Of a DNA stretch of 64,000 nucleotides, positions 4,095 through 57,325 are shown piece after piece. This stretch comes from a virus, in the IMG/VR virus record IMGVR_UViG_3300042887_000976, positions 13,673 to 77,672 of that record. One strand, given 5' to 3'. Made by a program: the position numbers and the translations under genes. Numbering within the stretch: the stretch's first letter is position 1; each line of letters opens with the position of its first letter. Under the pieces are notes generated by a model. That model saw only the letters and a program-made list of their open reading frames with translations. It was not told the origin of the DNA and did not search any database.

Positions 4095-4557
4095 GCCATG
4101 TCCTTTCTGCCTTCGCTAATGCTTGGCTTTCAATTTCCTCAACAAGTACATCCCAACTTTTTAGAACTCTTTCTTCGTTCCATTCAAGTCGGATGGTGTC
4201 GGGTACCGTCAATAGTAGCGTGGGTATACCCATATGCGCAACCTTCGCAACAGCAATTGGGTCAATATCTATGTACCAATTAATTTTGCCGTAAACAGCA
4301 TTAAAAGAAGCAACACGGTCAATCTTTACATCCACACTGTCTTCTAAAACAATGTCTACGGTAGTGGCTTTGTAGCCTTCACGCTTTAACCATTCAAGAA
4401 GAATGGGAGTATTTGTAATGCCTGTAGCCATGATGGCTAACTTGTTGTTGTACCCAGCATTTAGGGCTCCCCATAGTCGGCGCATTTCTTTTCGTGGAAT
4501 ACGAGCACCAATTTCATCACCAGGGGAAGCAATGGCATCAAAATTAATTAGAATCAC
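4081..4557 (-). CDS. hypothetical protein, possible degenerate HAD-like fold
   Basis: N-terminal ILINFDA strand and WYIDIDP motif; coupled to neighbours. Confidence 0.55.
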   Translation of the reverse strand: MILINFDAIASPGDEIGARIPRKEMRRLWGALNAGYNNKLAIMATGITNTPILLEWLKREGYKATTVDIVLEDSVDVKIDRVASFNAVYGKINWYIDIDPIAVAKVAHMGIPTLLLTVPDTIRLEWNEERVLKSWDVLVEEIESQALAKAERTWRESD

Positions 4558-5021
4558 TTGTCGTAAAGACCCATTTCAGTGCGTTGGCGATGCGTATAGT
4601 ATTCGGCGGCAGGGCAGTACATACACACATATTGTCGTTTTTCTTTAGGAATACCAGTTTTACGTCCAATAGTCTTATCGTCATTGCACCAATCAATGCA
4701 ACCCTGACTTGGTCGGTTGTGACGACTAAAACATTTGAGTGCATCAACTTTTAACTCATCTCGGAAGTCACGGATGTAAACATCTTGGTCTTGCAACTCT
4801 CTTTTAAGTGCTGTTTCTACATCTAACTTAGATGCAGTTTCTGGGTCTGTGCGATAGATTAATGCTCTACAGTTCTGAGGGTCGGGTACCTGTGCGTTAT
4901 GTCGGTCACATAGTTCACGCAACTCTTGGTCATATTCAGGTGGTCCATCATACGGACGCATCTTCCACATAACCCCATGGGTTTTGCATACAAGTAGACG
5001 GTCAAAGTCTTTATCAGCCAT
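4554..5021 (-). CDS. hypothetical Cys/His-rich (Zn-binding) protein
   Basis: CKTH, CxxxHxRP..GC, CMYC motifs; AGGAG RBS. Confidence 0.65.
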   Translation of the reverse strand: MADKDFDRLLVCKTHGVMWKMRPYDGPPEYDQELRELCDRHNAQVPDPQNCRALIYRTDPETASKLDVETALKRELQDQDVYIRDFRDELKVDALKCFSRHNRPSQGCIDWCNDDKTIGRKTGIPKEKRQYVCMYCPAAEYYTHRQRTEMGLYDK

Positions 5022-5045
5022 TTTGTGCTCCTAGTAGTTTCTGTA

Positions 5046-5065
5046 AGGTATCTTACATGATACCT
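5046..5065. promoter_or_regulatory. 7-bp inverted repeat overlapping a candidate -10 box (operator-like)
   Basis: AGGTATC-ttacat-GATACCT in the intergenic gap, covering GG-TATCAT on the minus strand. Confidence 0.4.
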
Positions 5066-5082
5066 AGTGGTGTTGTCTACTG

Positions 5083-5283: not shown

Positions 5284-6813
5284 TTACTTCTTTCCTTTGG
5301 GTTTTGCGGCTGCTTTTTTAGCAGGTGCTTTAGAGGCAACTGACTTTGGGCCTTCAACTGTTTGTGGAATTAAAGTAGTTAAAGGTTTCATTGATGCTTT
5401 ATCATTTAAAGGATTTTTACCCATGACTGGTTTATAGTCTGGGTCACCAATTTTTGGTTTTGGTTTTGCTGGACCATATTTTTTAGCGCCAACTCCACCT
5501 TGCTCGTTAATCTTACGACCCTGAGTCTTGGGAGCACCAATGTTACCTGTAGCAGCAGCAGTTGCTTCTTGAGCAGTAGCATACCCAGACTTAGGACCTT
5601 GAACAGGTTGTGACATTGGTCCTGCTGCTGGCGCTTGTGGACCTGCTGTTTCGGAAAGCCAAGGTCCATTAACACCTTTTTCATTTAATTTTTGACGGGC
5701 TGTGGCAGCCTCAGGACCACCCTTTTCGTCATTAGCATGAGCGTAAAGACCATCTGGCACTTTAGTACGGTTACTTTCGTCAAGTTGACCCATAGGTTGT
5801 GGACCTGATTCAATAGCACCAGCAGGTTGTGGTCCTGCACCAATTGCAGGAGTACCTGGACGCTGTGGACCCGCAACAGGTGTTTGTGGACCTACTGGTG
5901 GAGCACTAGTTTGCTGTCCAACTGGAATTTGTGGGCGACCAGGACCTACTGGAGGAGCACCAATTTGTGGAGGAGTTCCAGGAGGCTGCATCTTTATTGG
6001 TGGCGGTGCTGGTGGAAAAGGAGGTGGCGGTGGTGGGCCATAAATTGGCGGAGTAGGACCTACTGGCGGAGTTGGAGGCGGAGTAGGACCGACTGGAGGA
6101 GTCGGCGGTGGCGGCGGTGGAGTCGGCGTTGTGGGACCAACTGGAGGAGTTGGACTACCACCACCGAATGTACTGTTGTTTCCGCTGAAGGCTGTCTGTC
6201 GTCCTCCACTATTTTTGGATTGAAAGGAGTTATCGTAATCGCCGTTTCCAACATTAGCGCCTCCCATATTACCGTAGACAGTTCCGTAGTTGTCGTTACC
6301 TTGAACCATGGTAATGCCATGTGATGCTAACGCACCACTAAAATCTCCACGCCGACCACGGCGCATACCACGACTATTAGCAGGGGAAGTAATAGATGCA
6401 TTTTGGCTTCGTCCACCACCTGCAACTGGAGGACCCATTAAACCATCGTCTGCCATATCGGAACCATTTCTTGAAGAGGCGGTTGAGCCTGAATTGTCTT
6501 TATCCATTTTACCATCACGTGAGTCTTTGTATTTTTTAGCGGCCCAGCCACCTACGCCACCAACAGTCTTTTCAATGGTATCGTTCAAGCCTGTAAACAT
6601 GTTGTAATGGTTTACACCAGTATCATAATTGGGTCCACCGCCACCGCCACGGACACCCCGAAAGGTAGAAGGTGAACCTGGAGGTGCTTGGTACGTCCCA
6701 GGTTGTCCTGTCTTACGCCACATTTCCCAGTCCATGTGGCTTTGTGGAGCACGCCCTTGCTGTTGCAAGTAGCGGTTAATATCTTTATTTGTATTGAAGT
6801 CTGAATCTGTCAT
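5284..6813 (-). CDS. proline/glycine-rich low-complexity protein
   Basis: 509 aa; PTPPVGPT repeats, poly-Pro tracts, basic APAKKAAAKPKGKK tail. Confidence 0.7.
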   Translation of the reverse strand: MTDSDFNTNKDINRYLQQQGRAPQSHMDWEMWRKTGQPGTYQAPPGSPSTFRGVRGGGGGPNYDTGVNHYNMFTGLNDTIEKTVGGVGGWAAKKYKDSRDGKMDKDNSGSTASSRNGSDMADDGLMGPPVAGGGRSQNASITSPANSRGMRRGRRGDFSGALASHGITMVQGNDNYGTVYGNMGGANVGNGDYDNSFQSKNSGGRQTAFSGNNSTFGGGSPTPPVGPTTPTPPPPPPTPPVGPTPPPTPPVGPTPPIYGPPPPPPFPPAPPPIKMQPPGTPPQIGAPPVGPGRPQIPVGQQTSAPPVGPQTPVAGPQRPGTPAIGAGPQPAGAIESGPQPMGQLDESNRTKVPDGLYAHANDEKGGPEAATARQKLNEKGVNGPWLSETAGPQAPAAGPMSQPVQGPKSGYATAQEATAAATGNIGAPKTQGRKINEQGGVGAKKYGPAKPKPKIGDPDYKPVMGKNPLNDKASMKPLTTLIPQTVEGPKSVASKAPAKKAAAKPKGKK

Positions 6814-6815
6814 TA

Positions 6816-7052
6816 CTATTGACCTGCTTGTGCAGACTTTTCAATTTGGTTAGCAAGAATACTTTGCAAAGTAGATGTGGTGCCATGTTGCTTCAAAAGG
6901 TCAGAGGCGCTTCCCCATGCTTCAGTTTCTGACATACCATGGTTGCGCTGGATATGTTGCGCAAGAATGGCTGTAAGAACATGAGGAGAATGGGTCTCCA
7001 TCAATTTACGAGCCTCTTCATGGTAGTTTGTTTCATTTTCCATTATGCCCAC
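6816..7052 (-). CDS. small hypothetical protein
   Basis: ORF in coupled array; probable start at ATG 7043 (TAATG overlap); internal ILAxxI repeat. Confidence 0.6.
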   Translation of the reverse strand: MGIMENETNYHEEARKLMETHSPHVLTAILAQHIQRNHGMSETEAWGSASDLLKQHGTTSTLQSILANQIEKSAQAGQ

Positions 7053-7348
7053 AATCCTTGCATTGAGTAGCGACTAGAACCTTCAAAGTTGTCTTCCATA
7101 AAACCATTACGGAACATAACTGGAGCACCTGAAACCCAACGGCTATAAGTTGGCATAGTTCTTGGAGTATCAAGTACATCCATTATAGTCATTTCTTGAC
7201 GGTTAAACCCACGGGTTTGTGGAAACAACTGTTGTGGTACAAGCGGACGAATTGCTCTAATTTGTTCTGGGGGTAGCAAATAAGATTGTAAAGCCTGGTC
7301 TACCAGCATCTCTGTATGAGACTGATTGGGCTTGTACGGAACTTGCAT
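7043..7348 (-). CDS. hypothetical protein
   Basis: 101 aa, TAATG-coupled. Confidence 0.65.
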   Translation of the reverse strand: MQVPYKPNQSHTEMLVDQALQSYLLPPEQIRAIRPLVPQQLFPQTRGFNRQEMTIMDVLDTPRTMPTYSRWVSGAPVMFRNGFMEDNFEGSSRYSMQGLWA

Positions 7349-7602
7349 TATTGGATGTCAGCAACAACTTGTGGTGATTGTGAAAGAGATGCAATAATGT
7401 CACGGCGGGTACCCTGCATACGGCTCATTGCACGCATGTCATGGTTAGTTTCTGCAATGCCACCTGGGTCATGGCTATTTGGAATGTTATTTGCATTTAA
7501 AGCATTGTAAGCGCCCAAAGCAGCAGCAAGAACTTGTGGTTCTGCTGCCATCATGTGTGCAATTCTTGCGGGGTTATCCCGCTCGTCAATTCCTCTAGTC
7601 AT
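7348..7602 (-). CDS. small protein with shared N-terminal tag (MTRGIDERDNPAR)
   Basis: ATGA/TAATG coupling; carries the MxRGxDxxx[HN]PxR motif. Confidence 0.7.
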   Translation of the reverse strand: MTRGIDERDNPARIAHMMAAEPQVLAAALGAYNALNANNIPNSHDPGGIAETNHDMRAMSRMQGTRRDIIASLSQSPQVVADIQ

Positions 7603-7799
7603 TGGGGTTCCTTAGGTGTATTAGATGGGTGGGCGGCACGAGAACTTTGTTGTTTTTGTTCCATAATATATTCTGTAACTGCATCGTGCGGTTCAGACGG
7701 ATTAGCAAAGTTAACCCAAAGAACATTAGGAGTATTAACATTCCGCACAACTACTGGGTTGCGCTTAGGATTATTTCGTTCATCACGCCCTCGTGACAT
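7599..7799 (-). CDS. small protein with shared N-terminal tag (MSRGRDERNNPKR)
   Basis: TAATG coupling; motif present. Confidence 0.7.
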   Translation of the reverse strand: MSRGRDERNNPKRNPVVVRNVNTPNVLWVNFANPSEPHDAVTEYIMEQKQQSSRAAHPSNTPKEPQ

Positions 7800-8086
7800 T
7801 ACTGCTCCTCGTTGTCTTTTTGCGCTTCTAAGTGTTTACGCAAATTTGTAAGACGCTCTTTTTCACGTGGGTGAGGAGCGCCATAATCTAAAGTTTGGTT
7901 AATTTCCGCAAAAGTACCTTCACTGATTTCACCTTTTGATGCAAAACGTCCTAAAGCAGTATCATTACCCTGTGACCAGTCACGGGCTACTTGCTGTGGT
8001 CCATCATTAAGTTCAAATTGAGGGGTCGGTTTTGGACGACCTACTTGGCGCTTTGGGTGGTCACGAGTATCTTTTCCACGAGGCAT
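7799..8086 (-). CDS. small protein with shared N-terminal tag (MPRGKDTRDHPKR)
   Basis: Start moved to ATG 8086, which overlaps the upstream TAA and puts the motif at the N-terminus. Confidence 0.75.
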   Translation of the reverse strand: MPRGKDTRDHPKRQVGRPKPTPQFELNDGPQQVARDWSQGNDTALGRFASKGEISEGTFAEINQTLDYGAPHPREKERLTNLRKHLEAQKDNEEQ

Positions 8087-8322
8087 TATTTTGCTCCACA
8101 TCCAACACAAGGAACACGCTTACTAGGGTGGATAGATTCCCTGTCGTGCCACTCCAATGCTTCTCCCATGTCGTCAGTGCAATTGCTACAAAGTGGTCCG
8201 TCTTCGTCTTGACCAGCATTGGCACGATTTTGGTAGTATTCCATATCTGCACCCGTCATCATGAATGATTGACGGTCAACACCACGATTAGGGTGTTTAC
8301 TAGTATCTTCTCCACGAGGCAT
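8086..8322 (-). CDS. small protein with shared N-terminal tag (MPRGEDTSKHPNR) and Zn-ribbon
   Basis: Motif plus CSNC...CVGC. Confidence 0.75.
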   Translation of the reverse strand: MPRGEDTSKHPNRGVDRQSFMMTGADMEYYQNRANAGQDEDGPLCSNCTDDMGEALEWHDRESIHPSKRVPCVGCGAK

Positions 8323-8513
8323 TAGTAATCCTCGTTTTCTTCACGGTTGTCAAAATACTGATTAGTAGCATGCGCTGCTACGCCACCTACAATAGCACCT
8401 ATTGGACCATATCCAGCAGCACCAATAGCAGCACCACCTGCTACTCGCAACATGTTATGTAGTTTGTGATGGTCCATTCCATGTCCATCATCAAAAGACT
8501 TTCTGCGTGCCAT
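8322..8513 (-). CDS. small glycine-zipper-like protein
   Basis: AGGAAIGAAGYGPIGAIVGGVAA; TAATG-coupled. Confidence 0.65.
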   Translation of the reverse strand: MARRKSFDDGHGMDHHKLHNMLRVAGGAAIGAAGYGPIGAIVGGVAAHATNQYFDNREENEDY

Positions 8514-8809
8514 TATTGATTATTCCATCCTAGTTTGCCACCCTCTACCATGCCACCTTGCGTGATGGCTCCACGAATAGCCAAATGGCGAGCATTTTGA
8601 GGTGACTCACCATAACCTCGGTAAGTGCGGTATGATGCACGAGCATTCGCAGCACCTTCGGGATTTAACATAGTTGTTGGTCCTGTGGGATGGGAGTATC
8701 CCTGTGCTCTATAGCCTGCCAAAGTGTCCTTAGACATTCCACGGAACTCACTACGTGGTGTTGAGCGGTGGTTACCACCAACTGAATTTCCTCTATGGTC
8801 AGTAGTCAT
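8513..8809 (-). CDS. small protein with second-type tag (TDHRGNxVG)
   Basis: MTTDHRGNSVGGNHRSTPR; TAATG-coupled. Confidence 0.7.
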   Translation of the reverse strand: MTTDHRGNSVGGNHRSTPRSEFRGMSKDTLAGYRAQGYSHPTGPTTMLNPEGAANARASYRTYRGYGESPQNARHLAIRGAITQGGMVEGGKLGWNNQ

Positions 8810-9204
8810 TAGTAAAAAATACCTTCAGCAGGGTCTTTTGACTCTTTGTATTTTACCGTGGGTGGGTACTCGTAGGGAGAACTGTAGCCCATTGAGTTTT
8901 TACCTGAACGAGCGTCTACTGCTTCAGAAATAGCCGTAGGAATGTGGTCAATACGGTTACCAACATTGTCATCGTCTGGAACGGGTTTGTCAGGGTGGTA
9001 AGGGGTTGAGTAATCAACACCATAATGTGCATCGTCTAGGTAATCGTTTCCTTTGCGGTGCTCATCAATAACTTCCTGTGCGGTGTCTGAATCAATTTTA
9101 TAGTAACGTTGAAGCGCTTGGATAACACGGGGGGTAGGGCGGTGCCCACCATGTGATGTATCAGGGTTTCCTACTGGATTTCCTCTATGGTCAGTTGGCG
9201 GCAT
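8809..9204 (-). CDS. small protein with second-type tag (TDHRGNxVG)
   Basis: MPPTDHRGNPVGNPDTSHGGHRPTPR; TAATG-coupled. Confidence 0.7.
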   Translation of the reverse strand: MPPTDHRGNPVGNPDTSHGGHRPTPRVIQALQRYYKIDSDTAQEVIDEHRKGNDYLDDAHYGVDYSTPYHPDKPVPDDDNVGNRIDHIPTAISEAVDARSGKNSMGYSSPYEYPPTVKYKESKDPAEGIFY

Positions 9205-9464
9205 TAGTAGTGTCCTTTCTTCAGACGCTCTTCTCTAAGGTTATACTCTTCTTCAACATCTTCAGGGTCCCAGGGGTCAAGTACTTCATCTAAGTTAGGG
9301 CGAGGGATACCATGTGGAGGTGCGTCATCTTCATGGCGGATGTTAGACGTATCAGGGCGAGGGATACCATGTGGAGGTGCATCATCATTATCTTGGGTAT
9401 TCGTGATACGTGGGTCAACTGGGCGGCGACCTGGATGGTCTCGTGAATCTTTACCTCTTGGCAT
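9204..9464 (-). CDS. small protein with shared N-terminal tag (MPRGKDSRDHPGR) and internal duplication
   Basis: Motif present; DDAPPHGIPRP occurs twice; apparently leaderless first gene of the array. Confidence 0.75.
   Translation of the reverse strand: MPRGKDSRDHPGRRPVDPRITNTQDNDDAPPHGIPRPDTSNIRHEDDAPPHGIPRPNLDEVLDPWDPEDVEEEYNLREERLKKGHY
9297..9380. repeat. 27-bp exact direct repeat, two copies, period 57 nt
   Basis: agggcgagggataccatgtggaggtgc at 9297-9323 and 9354-9380. Confidence 0.9.
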
Positions 9465-9478
9465 AACTCTATTTTACC
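9465..9478 (-). promoter_or_regulatory. -10 element for a leaderless transcript of the tagged small-gene array
   Basis: GG-TAAAAT-AGAGTT-ATG: -10 box 6 nt before the start codon, no SD. Confidence 0.6.
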
Positions 9479-9970
9479 TTATTTCCACGGCGGTGCTAAT
9501 GATTTAAGAAGAGCACGCCGTTCAGCACTAATCTCTTGAACCTGTTCTTCTCCTTGGCGAGAAGGGATGCCACGAGGACCTACTTTTCCATCATTGGTAA
9601 GACGAACAGGTTCTGCTCCAGGGGGAGCAAATTTAAGACCTTGAGATTCTAATTGAATTCCTGTCCAAAGGTTAAACTCTTCGGGCCAAACGTAGTCACC
9701 AGGGTTGATGCGCTCACCTTTATGGACACCACGGCTGTACTGCCGAGCATTCATACGACTTAATGTTCCAAGAATCTTGTCTTGGCGGCGGTTAGAAGAC
9801 ATGGTGCCAAGGTATCCGTCTGGATACTGTTCTTCTACACCTGTGCGGTACCCCGATAGCAACTGGTCTTTAGAGTTGCGCCAAACTGGAGAAGGCCCCA
9901 TGCTGGCAGCAGTTCCCATACCAGGAGGTTCATTAGCGCTACCCCACTGAGTAAATGTATTAGCAGCCAT
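9479..9970 (-). CDS. hypothetical protein (possible virion protein)
   Basis: 163 aa; YPDGYLGT...YSRGVHKGERI; TAATG-coupled. Confidence 0.65.
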   Translation of the reverse strand: MAANTFTQWGSANEPPGMGTAASMGPSPVWRNSKDQLLSGYRTGVEEQYPDGYLGTMSSNRRQDKILGTLSRMNARQYSRGVHKGERINPGDYVWPEEFNLWTGIQLESQGLKFAPPGAEPVRLTNDGKVGPRGIPSRQGEEQVQEISAERRALLKSLAPPWK

Positions 9971-10289: not shown

Positions 10290-10580
10290 TTACTTAATAA
10301 TTGGTTTAAAAGAAATTGCAGAAATTGTTTCTCCGTCATTGCCTGGGATGTCATCAAACCCAATAACAAAAGATAAATCAATTCCACGTGGGGCAACAAA
10401 GCCACGGGCGATAGCGCAGGCTTTGGCTGCTTGGTTTACTGCTGATGCGCCAATAGCACGCATTTTAGGCATTTGCCCAGCATTAATAGCACGAGCCATG
10501 ATGGAACCTACGGATTGCGGGTTACTAGAACCCGATACCTTCAGAATATCGTCAATGGTGGTGTTCAGTTCTTGTGACAT
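10290..10580 (-). CDS. spoVS: SpoVS-family (Alba-like) protein
   Basis: LKVSGSSNPQSVG...RAIGASAVNQAAKACAIARGFVAPRGIDL...AISF matches the SpoVS consensus. Confidence 0.9.
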   Translation of the reverse strand: MSQELNTTIDDILKVSGSSNPQSVGSIMARAINAGQMPKMRAIGASAVNQAAKACAIARGFVAPRGIDLSFVIGFDDIPGNDGETISAISFKPIIK

Positions 10581-44756: not shown

Positions 44757-45836
44757 TTAGGAGATTGCGCCACCCTTTGTGTTGATTACAACACGAGACT
44801 CTGCGGTGATGACACCGAAGCCCCAGATTGCATACCATGACAAACCGTGCTCACGACCGAAGTCAATGACACCACCGTCACGCAGTTCAACTGGCAATGC
44901 GATTGCCTGACCGAATGCGTTGTCACCAATCATGATTGCTGAGTACGAGTCAGCATCTGGGTTTTGGTAACCAGCGGTTGCTGGGTTGAGGTCAACGATG
45001 CTGGTTCCACCCTTGAGAACTTGGGTGGTCTCAATGAAGACTACGTCATACAGACGACCAATTTCACCGAGCATGAAGTTACCTGGAGCGGCATACTTTG
45101 TTACTTCAATGAATTCAGGCCAGTCACGAAGCGCACGGCTCTGTGAAGGGTGTACGAAACATACGTAGGTATCGCCAAGGCGAGGGATGTTCTGACCAGC
45201 AAGTACTTCAACTGCGTCTTTTACAGCAGCAGGTGAGAGCCAGCCTGGGTTAGATGCGTTACCAAGGGTACCTGCATCGTATGGCGAGATAGAACCACGA
45301 GCCGCAGCAGGTGAACGACCGAAGACTACCGAAGGAGCAACGGCTGCGCCGCCACCGAATGGTGTTCCTGGTGCGTACAACGTGTTACGAGCCTGGATGT
45401 CCATGGACTGAGCCATGTGACGACCAAGAAGTCGTGAAGATGATGCCATAACGTCATCAAATGATGCGTTGAGGAGGAGTTCAGTAACTGCAACAGCCTG
45501 ACCTTGTTCCTTAACGGTGATTTGAATTTGACTTGCAGAAAGAGCAACTGGCTCCATACGTACACCTTCAGTAAGTTCAGCACCAGTGGCTTCGCTAGTC
45601 GTAAGGTTGTTGTAACGCATAAAGTTGATTGTCAAACCAGGCATAACTCCGAGTTCCGTCTTCTTGACGGCAAACTGTTCAAAGCGTAGAACTGGCATTG
45701 CTTGGAACAAGATTTCCTTGGACCAAATTTGCTGAATTGCTGGAGAAAGTGTTGAATCACTTGAGTAGCCTGTGGTTGTAATTGAACCAAGACCTGCTCC
45801 TGTAATTGCGCCACCTTGTGGGGCTGGAAGGGCCAT
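44757..45836 (-). CDS. major capsid protein (N4-gp56 family)
   Basis: PG.TI.F.RY, LTEG, VHP.Q..LR, GEIGRLYDVVFIET, DFGRE. Confidence 0.9.
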   Translation of the reverse strand: MALPAPQGGAITGAGLGSITTTGYSSDSTLSPAIQQIWSKEILFQAMPVLRFEQFAVKKTELGVMPGLTINFMRYNNLTTSEATGAELTEGVRMEPVALSASQIQITVKEQGQAVAVTELLLNASFDDVMASSSRLLGRHMAQSMDIQARNTLYAPGTPFGGGAAVAPSVVFGRSPAAARGSISPYDAGTLGNASNPGWLSPAAVKDAVEVLAGQNIPRLGDTYVCFVHPSQSRALRDWPEFIEVTKYAAPGNFMLGEIGRLYDVVFIETTQVLKGGTSIVDLNPATAGYQNPDADSYSAIMIGDNAFGQAIALPVELRDGGVIDFGREHGLSWYAIWGFGVITAESRVVINTKGGAIS

Positions 45837-45871: not shown

Positions 45872-46675
45872 TTAAAACCTGCCCCGTGAGGGGCGGGCGT
45901 TGAGGAGCCTGTCTCGCATCTTCATGTACTGGTCCATCGGCATGTTGCGGATATCCTCCGCTGTCAATGTTTGGTATTCCGTCTGAGTTTCCATTGGCCC
46001 AACAGGGGGAGCCGTTACTGGCGCACCCCGCAGGCGACCTTGCTGTTGCGCAGTCGCTTGCTGGATTGATTCAATAATAGCATTACTTCTCTCAGTAAGC
46101 ACTGCAATTGAGTTTTCTATCTCTTCTTCGGTATTACCAAAGACGAGGTCTTGTAATTCAGGGATAATGCTGTCAGCAGCATCTTGAACACGGCTGTTGC
46201 GATAAGCCGTTAATTCTTGGATACGGCGCTCTTTTTCAAGGAGTGCTTCCTGTGCGGCACGCTGGGTTTCAATGGCATCAATACGTGCTTTGTAGTCTTT
46301 TTCTACATTTTCAAAACGCTGAGTCCACTCATCTTCCTTTTTAAGAAGCAGTTCTTTAGCACTAAGTTCGTTGTGCTCACGTTGCTTAAGAATTTCTTGT
46401 TCTTGCTTTGCACGCTCTTCTGCTTCTTGGCGGGCTGCTTCACGCTCTGCGGCGATGATAGCCATTTGCTCTTCCATGCTTTTTACACGGGTGTCAGCCT
46501 CTTCAAGACGCTTGTACATCTTGTCTTTTTCCTGTTTACGGATGTTTTCTACTTCATCCTCAGAAAAGAGTTTAGAGTTACTTTTCTTCATTGCGTCTTC
46601 AACGAATTGCTCTACTTGGGGAGCATCCGCAGGGACTGAAATAATGTCCCCTTCGGGACCTGGGTTTCTTGCCAT
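45872..46675 (-). CDS. capsid scaffold protein
   Basis: Acidic coiled coil between portal and MCP; RKQEKDKMY. Confidence 0.8.
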   Translation of the reverse strand: MARNPGPEGDIISVPADAPQVEQFVEDAMKKSNSKLFSEDEVENIRKQEKDKMYKRLEEADTRVKSMEEQMAIIAAEREAARQEAEERAKQEQEILKQREHNELSAKELLLKKEDEWTQRFENVEKDYKARIDAIETQRAAQEALLEKERRIQELTAYRNSRVQDAADSIIPELQDLVFGNTEEEIENSIAVLTERSNAIIESIQQATAQQQGRLRGAPVTAPPVGPMETQTEYQTLTAEDIRNMPMDQYMKMRDRLLNARPSRGRF

Positions 46676-46728: not shown

Positions 46729-48420
46729 TTAGTTATCTTCGTCAGGGTTACGGCGTTGTGCAAAACGAGCGCCATAAGCCCTGGATACTATTTTATTTAC
46801 AATTTCCTCTTCCATCGGCATTGCTGCACCAAGTCCAGGCATCGGGGAAGCGGGGCTTTCCGATGTGGATACATTACCACCTTCTGAAGGTGCAGGCTGG
46901 GCACCTCCGTCAGGCTGTGTAACCATTCCAGTAGCAAGCATGATGGCTTGCTGAATCTGCGCACGCATCATGTCCAAGGCACCTTGGTCAATAGCGTCAT
47001 CTTGCAGTTCTTCAAAAATTTCAGACAACTTCTCACGTGGGAATTCTTCACCAAGGATGCGCAAAGCGCCTTCTTTTGATTCAAGCCCAAGTTGCATCTT
47101 GGCTTGCACTTCATTCAACTTAATAAGAACATCAATAGGAAGTGGCTCAGGCCAGTGAATACTTGTTCGGTAAGTTAGAGGGTCAGCAGGGTCTAACTGT
47201 GGAAGTTGGTCACGCTCTGGTTCTGAAGCCTTACTTGGGTCGTAATTTAACAACCATGGTTCAAAAATTGCAGCAGTACGAATAATGATTTCGTTAACAC
47301 GCTCAAGACCCTTAGTAAAGTGAATCTTCTTCATGCTGTAGCGGTTCATCATTGGCTGGTATTGAATAGCCAAAGCCACGCCAGAAGTGTTTGAAATGGG
47401 TTGCATTTGCCCAAGAGCAGTTTCAGGGACACCTGTAATCTCATGCATTGTGCGCTTAATGAAATTGACGTACTCCAAGGCACCAGACATTTCACCACGA
47501 GATTCAAGGTTAAAGACGTTGGCATCTTTAGGAAGACCTGCCCACACCTTCTTAGGTCCACGCTCCAATTGAGAAGCCTTAGCGCCAGTAATAATTGTTA
47601 CAGGAGCAGCGTGATAGTTAATGATGTCTGAAACTTCAGTCATCTTCTCGTTTAGTTCACGGTTAAGTGGGATGATATCCCAGATGTCTGACTGACCCCA
47701 AGGAGAAGACGAGATAGTTGTATTAGGAATGTGTACAACAGGAATTTGACCCAAAGCATTAGGGTATTGGTCAATCAGTTCGTCATTAACAAACTGTTGA
47801 ACCATATCGTCAGACAAGATTTCAACAAAAGTGTAAACCTGACGAGTACCTTCAGGGGATGTTCCCCAAAAACGATACTTAAGTTTAAAACGAATTAGAC
47901 GGTCACGGTCATGCGGGTGGTACTCAGGGAAACAATGCGCTGGGTTAAGAGGGATAATACGAATACGTCCCTCGTGCTGCAAGCCCACAGAATCCACATA
48001 AGGCTCTTCGTAGGCAATCTTTACGAAGCAATCGCCTGTTACTGACGCTAGTTGTCCCATTTCCCAAAGAACATAATGCTTGTTGTTATCGCCATCCCAC
48101 ACTTTGTGAAGAAGTGGTGGGATTACAGCAGCATTCTGCTCAGGGACATGAAATTGAATACCTTTACCAAAACAAAAGTTAGTAATGTAGTCCGACATAG
48201 TGCGGACGTAGTTCATATAGAACTGTGATTCGCCCATCTCACGGCGGTAGGACCAGTGGTGACCAAGATACCAAGCCCATGCGGCTGAGTAGCGGTTTAG
48301 GCGTGGGCCATGGACTTCAAACTCTTCGTCTGCAAGTTCTACTAGCCCTAACGGGCTAATAGCAACTGTTAGGTCGCTTGATGCTGCTCTATATGAGGGT
48401 GACCAAAAGTCAACTGCCAT
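46729..48420 (-). CDS. portal protein
   Basis: 563 aa; VTGD.F.K, IPVVHIPN, GQSDI, SGVAL.I; SPP1-like portal pattern. Confidence 0.85.
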   Translation of the reverse strand: MAVDFWSPSYRAASSDLTVAISPLGLVELADEEFEVHGPRLNRYSAAWAWYLGHHWSYRREMGESQFYMNYVRTMSDYITNFCFGKGIQFHVPEQNAAVIPPLLHKVWDGDNNKHYVLWEMGQLASVTGDCFVKIAYEEPYVDSVGLQHEGRIRIIPLNPAHCFPEYHPHDRDRLIRFKLKYRFWGTSPEGTRQVYTFVEILSDDMVQQFVNDELIDQYPNALGQIPVVHIPNTTISSSPWGQSDIWDIIPLNRELNEKMTEVSDIINYHAAPVTIITGAKASQLERGPKKVWAGLPKDANVFNLESRGEMSGALEYVNFIKRTMHEITGVPETALGQMQPISNTSGVALAIQYQPMMNRYSMKKIHFTKGLERVNEIIIRTAAIFEPWLLNYDPSKASEPERDQLPQLDPADPLTYRTSIHWPEPLPIDVLIKLNEVQAKMQLGLESKEGALRILGEEFPREKLSEIFEELQDDAIDQGALDMMRAQIQQAIMLATGMVTQPDGGAQPAPSEGGNVSTSESPASPMPGLGAAMPMEEEIVNKIVSRAYGARFAQRRNPDEDN

Positions 48421-48799: not shown

Positions 48800-49405
48800 T
48801 TACTGCTCTTGAATCTGTGCATAGAATGGAGCACCCGTATGAGGGTCATAATGAGCCGCAACGGTAAGGGCCTTGAGGGCAAGACTTTTCGCTTGGGGAG
48901 CGGTCAACTTCTTCTTGGGAAAAAGAGCCTTAAGAGCACCCAATGCGTATGGGCCCCCCGTCCCCAAAGCGTAGAGACCATTGTTGTCGGAAGCCCACGA
49001 ATAGTCGCTATCAATAACATAGATAACACCGTTAATAGCCACGAGGATTGATGACCCTTGCTCTGCAACATGGTCTGATTGGTCATTATTAGGGGACGAA
49101 TAACCCTGTGAATCAAAGCATTCTCGTAAATCAGGAATAAACTTTGAAGTAAAAAACTTGTCTAAACGTATTCCAAGAAGAGTTGCTGGTGGTGCTGGAG
49201 GGTTAAAGACATGGTGCAAAAGGTTAATTGCACGCATATCTCCAGCCGCTCCAATGATATATTTGCCGTTTTTGGCAACCTTGCCAGAACCAGGGCGCAC
49301 TGTAGATATCCGTGATACAAACCCATTTGAGTCTGTATCCGAAATGCGTGAATCGTTAGCAATTATGGCGTAACCATCACCCTGTATTCCAACAATAGTT
49401 GTCAT
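48800..49405 (-). CDS. Ntn-hydrolase (HslV / proteasome beta-like) protein
   Basis: MTTIVG, ANDS, K, GAAGD, GTGG.YALG, D..T. Confidence 0.8.
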   Translation of the reverse strand: MTTIVGIQGDGYAIIANDSRISDTDSNGFVSRISTVRPGSGKVAKNGKYIIGAAGDMRAINLLHHVFNPPAPPATLLGIRLDKFFTSKFIPDLRECFDSQGYSSPNNDQSDHVAEQGSSILVAINGVIYVIDSDYSWASDNNGLYALGTGGPYALGALKALFPKKKLTAPQAKSLALKALTVAAHYDPHTGAPFYAQIQEQ

Positions 49406-57158: not shown

Positions 57159-57290
57159 TTACTCTTCGTTATCAGTACTTGGGGCTACTTGGAGTTTCTG
57201 TAATGCTGCCTTGTAAGCGATGTTTTCAAGGGTAAGGCGTTTTACTTCTTCAAGTAGGCCATTGATAAGGTCGTCAGTTTGTAGTTCCAT
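57159..57290 (-). CDS. small coiled-coil protein (43 aa, not in ORF track)
   Basis: MELQTDDLINGLLEEVKRLTLEN...; AAGGAG RBS and TGTATACT -10 upstream. Confidence 0.55.
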   Translation of the reverse strand: MELQTDDLINGLLEEVKRLTLENIAYKAALQKLQVAPSTDNEE

Positions 57291-57325
57291 TTAAGGCTCC
57301 TTTGTTATGTTGTAAGTATACATAT

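Follow-up and report, generated by a model that had tools for sequence, protein, structure and literature searches.

A conserved N-terminal peptide on unrelated small proteins of lake actinophages, a candidate address for loading into the phage head

Why should adjacent small genes of a phage, whose products share nothing visible over most of their length, begin with the same peptide? The question is raised by positions 7043 to 9464 of the window, as we call the whole 64-kb stretch of viral DNA analysed here (it spans bases 13673-77672 of an IMG/VR virus contig, which is 77.7 kb long, 82% complete and 44% in G + C content (GC)). Nine co-directional genes on its minus strand run from 9464 down to 7043, linked by TAATG or ATGA overlaps, and five of them, with starts at 9464, 8322, 8086, 7799 and 7602, begin M-[PST]-R-G-x-D-x3-[HN]-P-x-R. 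A preliminary description of this DNA had proposed that the shared N-terminus is a tag by which interchangeable cargo proteins are packaged into the virion. The first part of that proposal is borne out by the sequence: the tag is a genuine N-terminal peptide, conserved as a peptide, on unrelated proteins encoded at a variable locus. It is probably read by one single partner, and loading into the phage head is the leading single reading of its function, which we hold tentatively.

The shared N-terminus and its cargos

The open reading frames of the small genes, their TAATG and ATGA overlaps and the five N-terminal peptides quoted in the preliminary description proved exact, with nine genes counted where it had named eight. 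The pattern.RG.D.{4}P.R matches five times in the six frames of the window, each time straight after an ATG, against an expectation of 0.055 from 200 nucleotide shuffles and of 0.018 from residue-shuffled proteins. Past the tag, the five cargos, as we call the remainders of the proteins, fall into five separate BLAST clusters and MAFFT aligns nothing, in agreement with the earlier claim that the downstream parts are unrelated. The genes of the array, with lengths in amino acids (aa) and with their occurrence in relatives where this was noted, are as follows.

9204..9464, minus strand: tagged gene 1, 86 aa, with the class-1 tag MPRGKDSRDHPGR and an acidic cargo that contains the motif DDAPPHGIPRP twice.
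8809..9204, minus strand: class-2 tagged gene, 131 aa, with the divergent N-terminal module MPPTDHRGNPVG...HRPTPR; absent from the relative L002.
8513..8809, minus strand: class-2 tagged gene, 98 aa, with the N-terminus MTTDHRGNSVGGNHRSTPR; absent from L002.
8322..8513, minus strand: untagged gene, 63 aa; its product has a hydrophobic stretch rich in Gly and Ala and may be a small membrane protein; kept in L002.
8086..8322, minus strand: tagged gene, 78 aa, with the class-1 tag MPRGEDTSKHPNR and a zinc-ribbon-like cargo (CxxC...CxGC); the cassette is absent in L002.
7799..8086, minus strand: tagged gene, 95 aa, with the class-1 tag MPRGKDTRDHPKR; orthologues in L002, L003 and L005.
7599..7799, minus strand: tagged gene, 66 aa, with the class-1 tag MSRGRDERNNPKR.
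7348..7602, minus strand: tagged gene, 84 aa, with the class-1 tag MTRGIDERDNPAR and a helix-prone cargo.
7043..7348, minus strand: untagged gene, 101 aa, the conserved downstream flank of the island; same-place homologues in G021, G028 and G048, none in the Streptomyces phage LuckySocke.

For the 63-aa gene at 8322..8513, holin and PHROG matches were sub-threshold only. The two genes at 8809-9204 and 8513-8809 begin with a second form of the N-terminus, M-x-T-D-H-R-G-x-P-V-G-x-N-H-R-P-T-P-R, so that the module is present, in some form, in seven of the nine array genes. This class-2 N-terminus also stands on diverse cargos in L012, L056, L063 and L078, and L064 and L055 have hybrid N-termini, made up of the class-1 tag and [HY]R.TPR behind it. 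In G028, which belongs to a subclade without class-1 tags, the same island (65168-66614) has MAFN[VI]RSI[LA]GRN as a third such N-terminus.

Relatives of the array were obtained by way of the conserved gene at its upstream end.

9479..9970, minus strand: upstream flank, 163 aa; the anchor gene for fetching relatives, with 129 relatives in IMG/VR and the homologue gp177 in LuckySocke.

Out of the 129 loci found with this anchor gene, 80 were fetched from IMG/VR, and a tag profile was run on their stop-to-stop six-frame pieces with a cut-off of 20 bits. It gave 101 matches at or above the cut-off, all on the anchor-gene strand, 99 of which begin on ATG or GTG. A 32-column HMMER profile of 50 tags, run against 1.84 billion representative proteins, found 199 representatives at E ≤ 0.001; among the best 150 of these, 145 match from residue 1, three have the tag methionine behind a miscalled start and one is an unrelated repeat protein. 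In relatives, the motif was N-terminal in about 95-99% of cases, on diverse cargos and in variable copy number; the preliminary description had named such a pattern as support, and its objection that the motif might not be restricted to the N-terminus in relatives does not refute the tag.

The consensus of the family is M-A-[RK]-G-E-D-T-x-x-H-P-N-R-[KRQ]-V-[GSD]-R-[ED]-x-[FLIMYW]. Two statements of the preliminary description require amendment here. The tag, given as 13 residues long, is indeed a shared N-terminal peptide, but it reaches to about residue 20 in relatives; and of the positions listed as invariant in the window (M1, R3, G4, D6, P11 and R13), only G4 and R13 are so throughout the family, whereas M1, D6 and P11, together with V15, are conserved at more than 90% and R3 is frequently replaced by K or N. 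Position 2 is Ala, Pro, Ser or Thr in every case, from which, given the known specificity of methionine aminopeptidase, we infer that the initiator Met is removed. Position 20 is hydrophobic in 105 of 146. In an AlphaFold2 (AF2) model built on the tag alignment, residues 1-16 are coil, with a predicted local distance difference test score (pLDDT) of about 70, and a generic helix follows.

Among 92 distinct tag-coding sequences, G4 is encoded by GGA (48), GGT (32), GGC (11) and GGG (1), and R13 by CGT (36), CGC (33), CGA (12), AGA (5), AGG (4) and CGG (2); the codon variation at conserved positions that had been remarked on in the window thus holds over the larger set, with four codons for the glycine and six for the arginine. 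Because codons vary at the invariant residues, and because the tag is kept both at 44% and at 63-65% GC, selection acts on the peptide and not on the DNA or RNA.

The tag is hydrophilic, with a net charge of about +2.5 and basic residues at R3, R13, K/R14 and R17, and copies of a repeated 13-base word lie in intergenic gaps of the genome. It could be imagined, on that account, that the tag is a basic arm that binds DNA or RNA, for example at this word, as arginine-rich antiterminator N-termini do. The basic residues number only three or four, however, and are broken up by the conserved acidic E5, D6 and E18; no 13-mer stands at the array itself; and a profile search of the PDB found no likeness to arginine-rich motifs or AT-hooks. 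We regard a nucleic-acid arm as extremely improbable. The word (C)ATTACAGAAACT has copies in the intergenic gaps 5022-5082 and 57159-57325, none of them directly at the tagged array. Residues 2-10 of the tag resemble the tryptophan-binding loop of TRAP/MtrB (T-R-G-x-D-T-R-F-H-H); this was the sole match of the PDB profile search, at E = 0.16, and we take it as probably due to chance.

Compared by BLASTP from residue 19 to the end (E < 0.001), the 98 distinct local tagged proteins gave 46 cargo clusters, and the 149 tagged proteins from the database gave 108 BLAST clusters without mutual similarity; the cargos do not align along their length, as those of ordinary full-length paralogues would. 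The tagged database proteins are 50-246 residues long, with a median of 79. Judged by the charge-hydropathy criterion, natively unfolded cargos are predicted in 132 of 146 cases, compared with none among 12 control proteins (enzymes and structural proteins) taken from this phage, and 70% of the cargos are net acidic, in contrast to the positively charged tag. CxxC pairs occur in some. Unrelated cargos reuse short motifs, such as GIPRP and NFGHPMQNHPAF; the motif D-D-A-P-P-H-G-I-[PK]-R-P-[KF], found twice in the gene at 9204-9464, is present in other unrelated cargos as well, and N-F-G-H-P-M-Q-N-H-P-A-F is another that recurs among them. The tagged proteins look like strings or mosaics of short linear motifs and not like folded domains. 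Searches of Pfam, PHROGs and NCBIfam with all of the small proteins and the 149 database representatives gave no family and three weak zinc-ribbon matches only, and the ESM Atlas gave only sub-threshold, unnamed clusters.

Distribution, genomic place and cassette exchange

Every gene of the window lies on the minus strand. Along the direction of transcription the terminase, an SPP1-like portal, the scaffold, the major capsid protein and the tail genes come first; the portal gene is at 46729-48420, the scaffold gene at 45872-46675 and the capsid gene at 44757-45836. Then come genes of replication and recombination, for an SNF2 helicase, a family-A polymerase, RecA, Cas4-like and PD-(D/E)XK nucleases and a SpoVS homologue, and after these the conserved 163-aa gene (9479-9970) and the nine small genes. 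The major capsid protein shares about 60% identity with its counterparts in the Streptomyces phages BRock, LuckySocke, Alone3, GiJojo and pSt2308, and these phages also encode a homologue of the 163-aa gene; on these two grounds, the earlier assignment to an actinophage is upheld. LuckySocke keeps the order resolvase, SpoVS-like gene, 163-aa gene homologue and small genes, and no tag was found in its whole genome (114.6 kb). Near-verbatim copies of the window DNA occur in 15 metagenome runs from lake water. The SpoVS homologue (10290-10580, minus strand; Pfam E = 2e-20) keeps its position in low-GC relatives, in G048 and in LuckySocke (gp174). At 5284-6813, also on the minus strand, a 509-aa protein with long Pro-rich repeats (PPVGPTPP...) is encoded, a homologue of which was found in none of the five relatives compared.

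The tag cluster occupies a variable island between the 163-aa gene and the homologue of the gene at 7043-7348. Each of the 12 relatives that are at least 90% complete has one to four class-1 tagged genes, nearly always within a few kb and on one strand, and the overall range is one to five tagged genes per genome; with the differences in content from L002 described below, the variable locus and variable copy number of the original proposal are confirmed.

A degenerate DNA pattern for the tag (about 41 bits, covering roughly 40% of known tags) found 50 stretches in IMG/VR. The same pattern, with its sensitivity of about 40%, gave two chance matches, out of frame and with stops, and no true tag among 185,579 prokaryote genomes, one per species; and in 50,697 cultured-phage records neither blastn of the region nor tblastn of a tagged protein found a tag-bearing isolate. 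The source annotation of the tagged proteins is 'hypothetical protein' only, and a search for the tag motif strings found no paper in the literature collection that it covered. The tag family appears to be undescribed, which bears out the earlier statement, given also that it has no Pfam, PHROGs or NCBIfam family.

The tag is shared with a second lineage (lineage II) of high-GC sister contigs (63-65% GC), namely G048 (100.7 kb), G049, G040, G036 and G050. Compared with the window, these have 50-57% identity in the terminase, the portal and the capsid protein, which makes them about as distant as LuckySocke. G048 and G049 have tagged genes solely in the interval from terminase to portal; they encode proteins of 68-73 aa, have good Shine-Dalgarno sequences and adjoin a gene for a protein with an Ig-like (TIG/Big_2) domain. 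In G050 and G040 the tagged genes are elsewhere, near a helicase and beside a multi-copy family with a GHHRV motif. As the tags of lineage II stand in the head module in some contigs and outside it in others, the tag is not tied to a single genomic place. The multi-copy family that flanks lineage II tags has the motif ...KEPV...GHHRV...INP...IPV and is ParB/sulfiredoxin-like by eye only; on the transcribed strand its members lie at 261-1042 and 3091-3570 in L140 and at 4343-4915 and 6586-7902 in L141. The capsid protein of lineage II (G048:22743-23954 and G049:42530-43711, and also in G050, G040 and G036) matches in two pieces around an insertion, its open frames being 443-570 aa long compared with 359 aa in the window, with one in-frame TGA in two contigs.

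This distribution bears on a different explanation, that the tag is directed at the host and binds a conserved hub (RNA polymerase, the ribosome, a Clp or proteasome ATPase, or a nucleoid protein), bringing the disordered tails there for takeover or counter-defence without any packaging. The cargos, as disordered mosaics of recurring short motifs, are like those of viral hub binders, and a near-invariant tag, set against phage core proteins at 30-55% identity, would fit a slowly evolving reader. Moreover, the tag follows phage lineage or habitat and not capsid similarity, the Streptomyces relatives being without it, and in the lineage of the window (lineage I) the array stands among non-structural genes. 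Nevertheless, no host protein with the motif appeared in the 185,579 genomes at about 40% sensitivity, and no cellular-looking match among the 150 best of the profile search; the tag is common to phages that, at 44% and 65% GC, probably differ in host, but Streptomyces phages lack it; and the place of the tagged genes in the head module of G048 and G049 would go unexplained. We consider docking on a host hub possible but rather unlikely.

How the content of the array changes is seen in a comparison with L002, whose anchor protein is 97% identical to that of the window. In tagged gene 1, the tag is identical at 20 of 20 residues and the cargo is 32% identical, and the DNA alignment ends about 110 nucleotides (nt) into the gene. 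The zinc-ribbon gene at 8086-8322 is absent from L002, and the breakpoints of the indel lie within tag-coding DNA: bases 4946-4987 of L002 align both to the tag of this gene and to the tag of the next, and both are combined in the chimeric L002 tag, MPRGEDT+RDHPKR. Contigs from RNA libraries span parts of the array, and one of them, of a metatranscriptome library from a lake, skips 8091-8336, which is the same deletion form as in L002; being a contig only, it establishes that the variant exists and says nothing on transcription or timing. The breakpoints in duplicated tag DNA and the chimeric tag of L002 are direct evidence, at the level of sequence, that the DNA coding for the tag is a recombination joint: cassettes are gained, lost and swapped by recombination inside it.

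The same breakpoints could also be taken to mean that the shared N-terminus has no common reader, and persists through duplication and recombination at that place or because its first codons serve the start or coupling of translation. The whole array is translationally coupled, and the other shared N-termini in the same island (class 2, and MAFN[VI]RSI in G028) are in line with such a view. It does not account, however, for the freedom of synonymous sites beside fixed residues in the 92 distinct tag sequences, for the persistence of the tag from 44% to 65% GC and at different genomic places and upstream contexts, or for the conservation of the approximately 5% of tags that are internal, and we hold it to be very unlikely.

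Possible readers of the tag

In the explanation that we favour, the approximately 20 N-terminal residues, which have no regular secondary structure in the model, would form a portable linear address or docking peptide, read by one conserved partner. The small proteins that carry it evolve fast, are for the most part acidic and, by prediction, disordered, and are exchanged by the phages as cassettes in the way described for L002. The partner would be the assembling head, whether portal, scaffold or capsid interior, so that the cargos would be loaded into the virion and would enter the next cell with the DNA, like the internal proteins of T4; small disordered cargos could presumably pass the tail channel. 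Pointers to head loading are the architecture of tag and cargo, the variable locus, the position of the tagged genes of G048 and G049 in the head module and the small size and predicted disorder of the cargos. Taken as a whole, with the head as reader and the virion as destination, the explanation is arguable by analogy but distinctly uncertain.

Several observations weigh against it. The array in the lineage of the window lies between recombination and accessory genes, apart from the head genes, and the terminase-portal interval, which in the window holds a phosphoesterase and the peptidase discussed below, is itself a variable accessory region, so that a location in it is weak evidence for a role in the head. 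No head or tail protein of G000 bears the tag; no prohead protease of the S78, U35, U9 or ClpP type was found in the head module of the window or of LuckySocke; and no tag was found anywhere in the Streptomyces relatives, which have portal, scaffold and capsid genes in the same order and a capsid protein with 60% identity. The tag consensus is, by inspection, without sequence likeness to the T4 peptide. Conservation of the tag is also much stronger than that of the scaffold protein (30-35% identity between lineages), which would fit a reader more conserved than the scaffold. Approximately 5% of tags are internal yet conserved, behind an extension of 17-20 residues (M-x-A-K-I-Y-N-L-D-E-Y-R...), so that a free N-terminus is usual but not obligatory; another exceptional subfamily has a longer first half. 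The last point concerns the start of the array, for which the preliminary description had proposed a leaderless promoter of its own.

9471..9499, minus strand: promoter-like site TTAGCA-17-TAAAAT, 9/12 consensus, with its end 6 nt upstream of the start ATG in tagged gene 1.

The case for this promoter is weak. Sites of the same 9/12 grade are common, 22 being present in 7 kb compared with 10.3 expected, and the site before 9464 is kept only in the closest relatives, L002 and L005. In more distant relatives the first tagged gene comes after the stop of the upstream gene, with a Shine-Dalgarno sequence, and most tagged genes are preceded by a Shine-Dalgarno sequence within the upstream gene. The intergenic listing held no promoter common to the array and the head genes, and the word GGTAAAATAGAG was not enriched (8 compared with 6.2 expected).

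The product of the 163-aa anchor gene was considered as a partner of the tag and rejected, because Streptomyces phages without tags also have the gene and because, in G048, it is remote from the tags. It has no Pfam, PHROG or NCBIfam match, and its AF2 model has a pLDDT of 56 and a predicted template modelling score (pTM) of 0.17; possibly the protein folds only within an assembly. Its mean column identity is 70%, with many invariant Gly, Pro and aromatic residues.

An enzyme might read the tag instead, as a leader or degron, that is, a handle for processing, modification or degradation, for example by cleavage after the hydrophobic residue 20. The conserved positions are chemically varied (G4, D6, T7, H10, P11, N12, R13, V15 and R17), as in a substrate or leader motif, and the expected loss of the initiator Met and the frequent hydrophobic residue at position 20 would suit such a role. 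A candidate enzyme is an HslV/proteasome-beta-like peptidase, encoded at 48800-49405 on the minus strand, just upstream of the portal gene and next to a metallophosphoesterase; it starts MTTIVG, so that Thr would be N-terminal after removal of the Met, and we know of no role in head maturation for it. An HslV-type peptidase is present in all 12 complete tag-bearing genomes of lineage I and absent from the tag-less LuckySocke, but, with the peptidase belonging to the core genes of a single clade, this co-occurrence is not independent evidence. As the reader of the tag the peptidase fails in lineage II, where five contigs have tags without it, including one with a fully covered terminase-portal interval; G021, conversely, has the peptidase and only a class-2 tag.

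The wider class of leader/maturase systems, where a single maturase acts on many precursors, including those for ribosomally synthesized and post-translationally modified peptides (RiPPs), resembles the present one in its tandem genes with a conserved N-terminal stretch and a hypervariable remainder. However, no enzyme family recurs beside the tags, whose neighbours are hypothetical, recombination, ParB-like-looking or head genes, and no radical SAM, YcaO, ligase or kinase consistently adjoins the tagged genes, the HslV-like peptidase being the sole candidate. RiPP-like systems have short cores rich in Cys, Ser and Thr, unlike the disordered cargos of 40-230 residues found here. We therefore consider an enzyme leader or degron improbable, and compare our favoured reading, loading into the head, with the systems it recalls.

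Relation to known systems and significance

The capsid-targeting sequence (CTS) of T4 heads the proteins IPI, IPII and IPIII (and Alt), which are encoded at a hypervariable locus of T-even phages, and their cargo is thought to be a counter-defence set (PMC3012670). As in T4, a short conserved N-terminal peptide stands here on otherwise unrelated small proteins, the genes of which lie in a variable locus that changes in content between close relatives. Unlike T4, the present phage is an actinophage of the siphovirus type; it has a scaffold and an SPP1-like portal and no prohead protease of the gp21 type. The T4 CTS is known from experiment to interact with the scaffolding core, whereas the tag described here is a hydrophilic coil in the model; the variety of cargo is also much larger, at least 199 representative clusters compared with a handful in T4. 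In view of the lack of a relation in sequence and of a usual prohead protease, and with packaging proposed by analogy, we do not file the tag family as a member of the T4 CTS system.

Encapsulin cargo-loading peptides and scaffold-derived targeting provide examples in which a short linear peptide suffices to send diverse cargo inside an HK97-fold shell; the encapsulin peptides are usually C-terminal, and their consensus differs from that of the present tag. Viral short linear motifs that dock on host hubs, such as clamp-binding peptides, are like the tag in being motifs of 10-20 residues in disordered, fast-evolving proteins that combine several motifs; unlike them, the present tag is almost always at the extreme N-terminus. 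New here are the particular tag, the size of its family (at least 199 clusters) and its behaviour as a recombination joint.

In its fullest form, the head-loading reading would have siphovirus-type phages of actinobacteria, from freshwater and elsewhere, run a system like that of the T4 internal proteins without a prohead protease, in which the tag loads a library, spread over the population, of more than 200 interchangeable, disordered and mainly acidic mini-proteins that are injected as first-minute factors of counter-defence or takeover, and the tag DNA doubles as a recombination joint; we regard this full form as rather doubtful. Recombination inside the tag DNA is a concrete mechanism by which the address is held constant while the payloads are exchanged. 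If one partner reads the tag, a peptide of 20 residues indexes several hundred phage proteins from very abundant lake bacteria as one functional class; and if that partner is the head, internal-protein loading would become a more general phage strategy and not a peculiarity of T4, and foreign proteins could be packaged into the capsids of actinophages with the tag as a natural handle.

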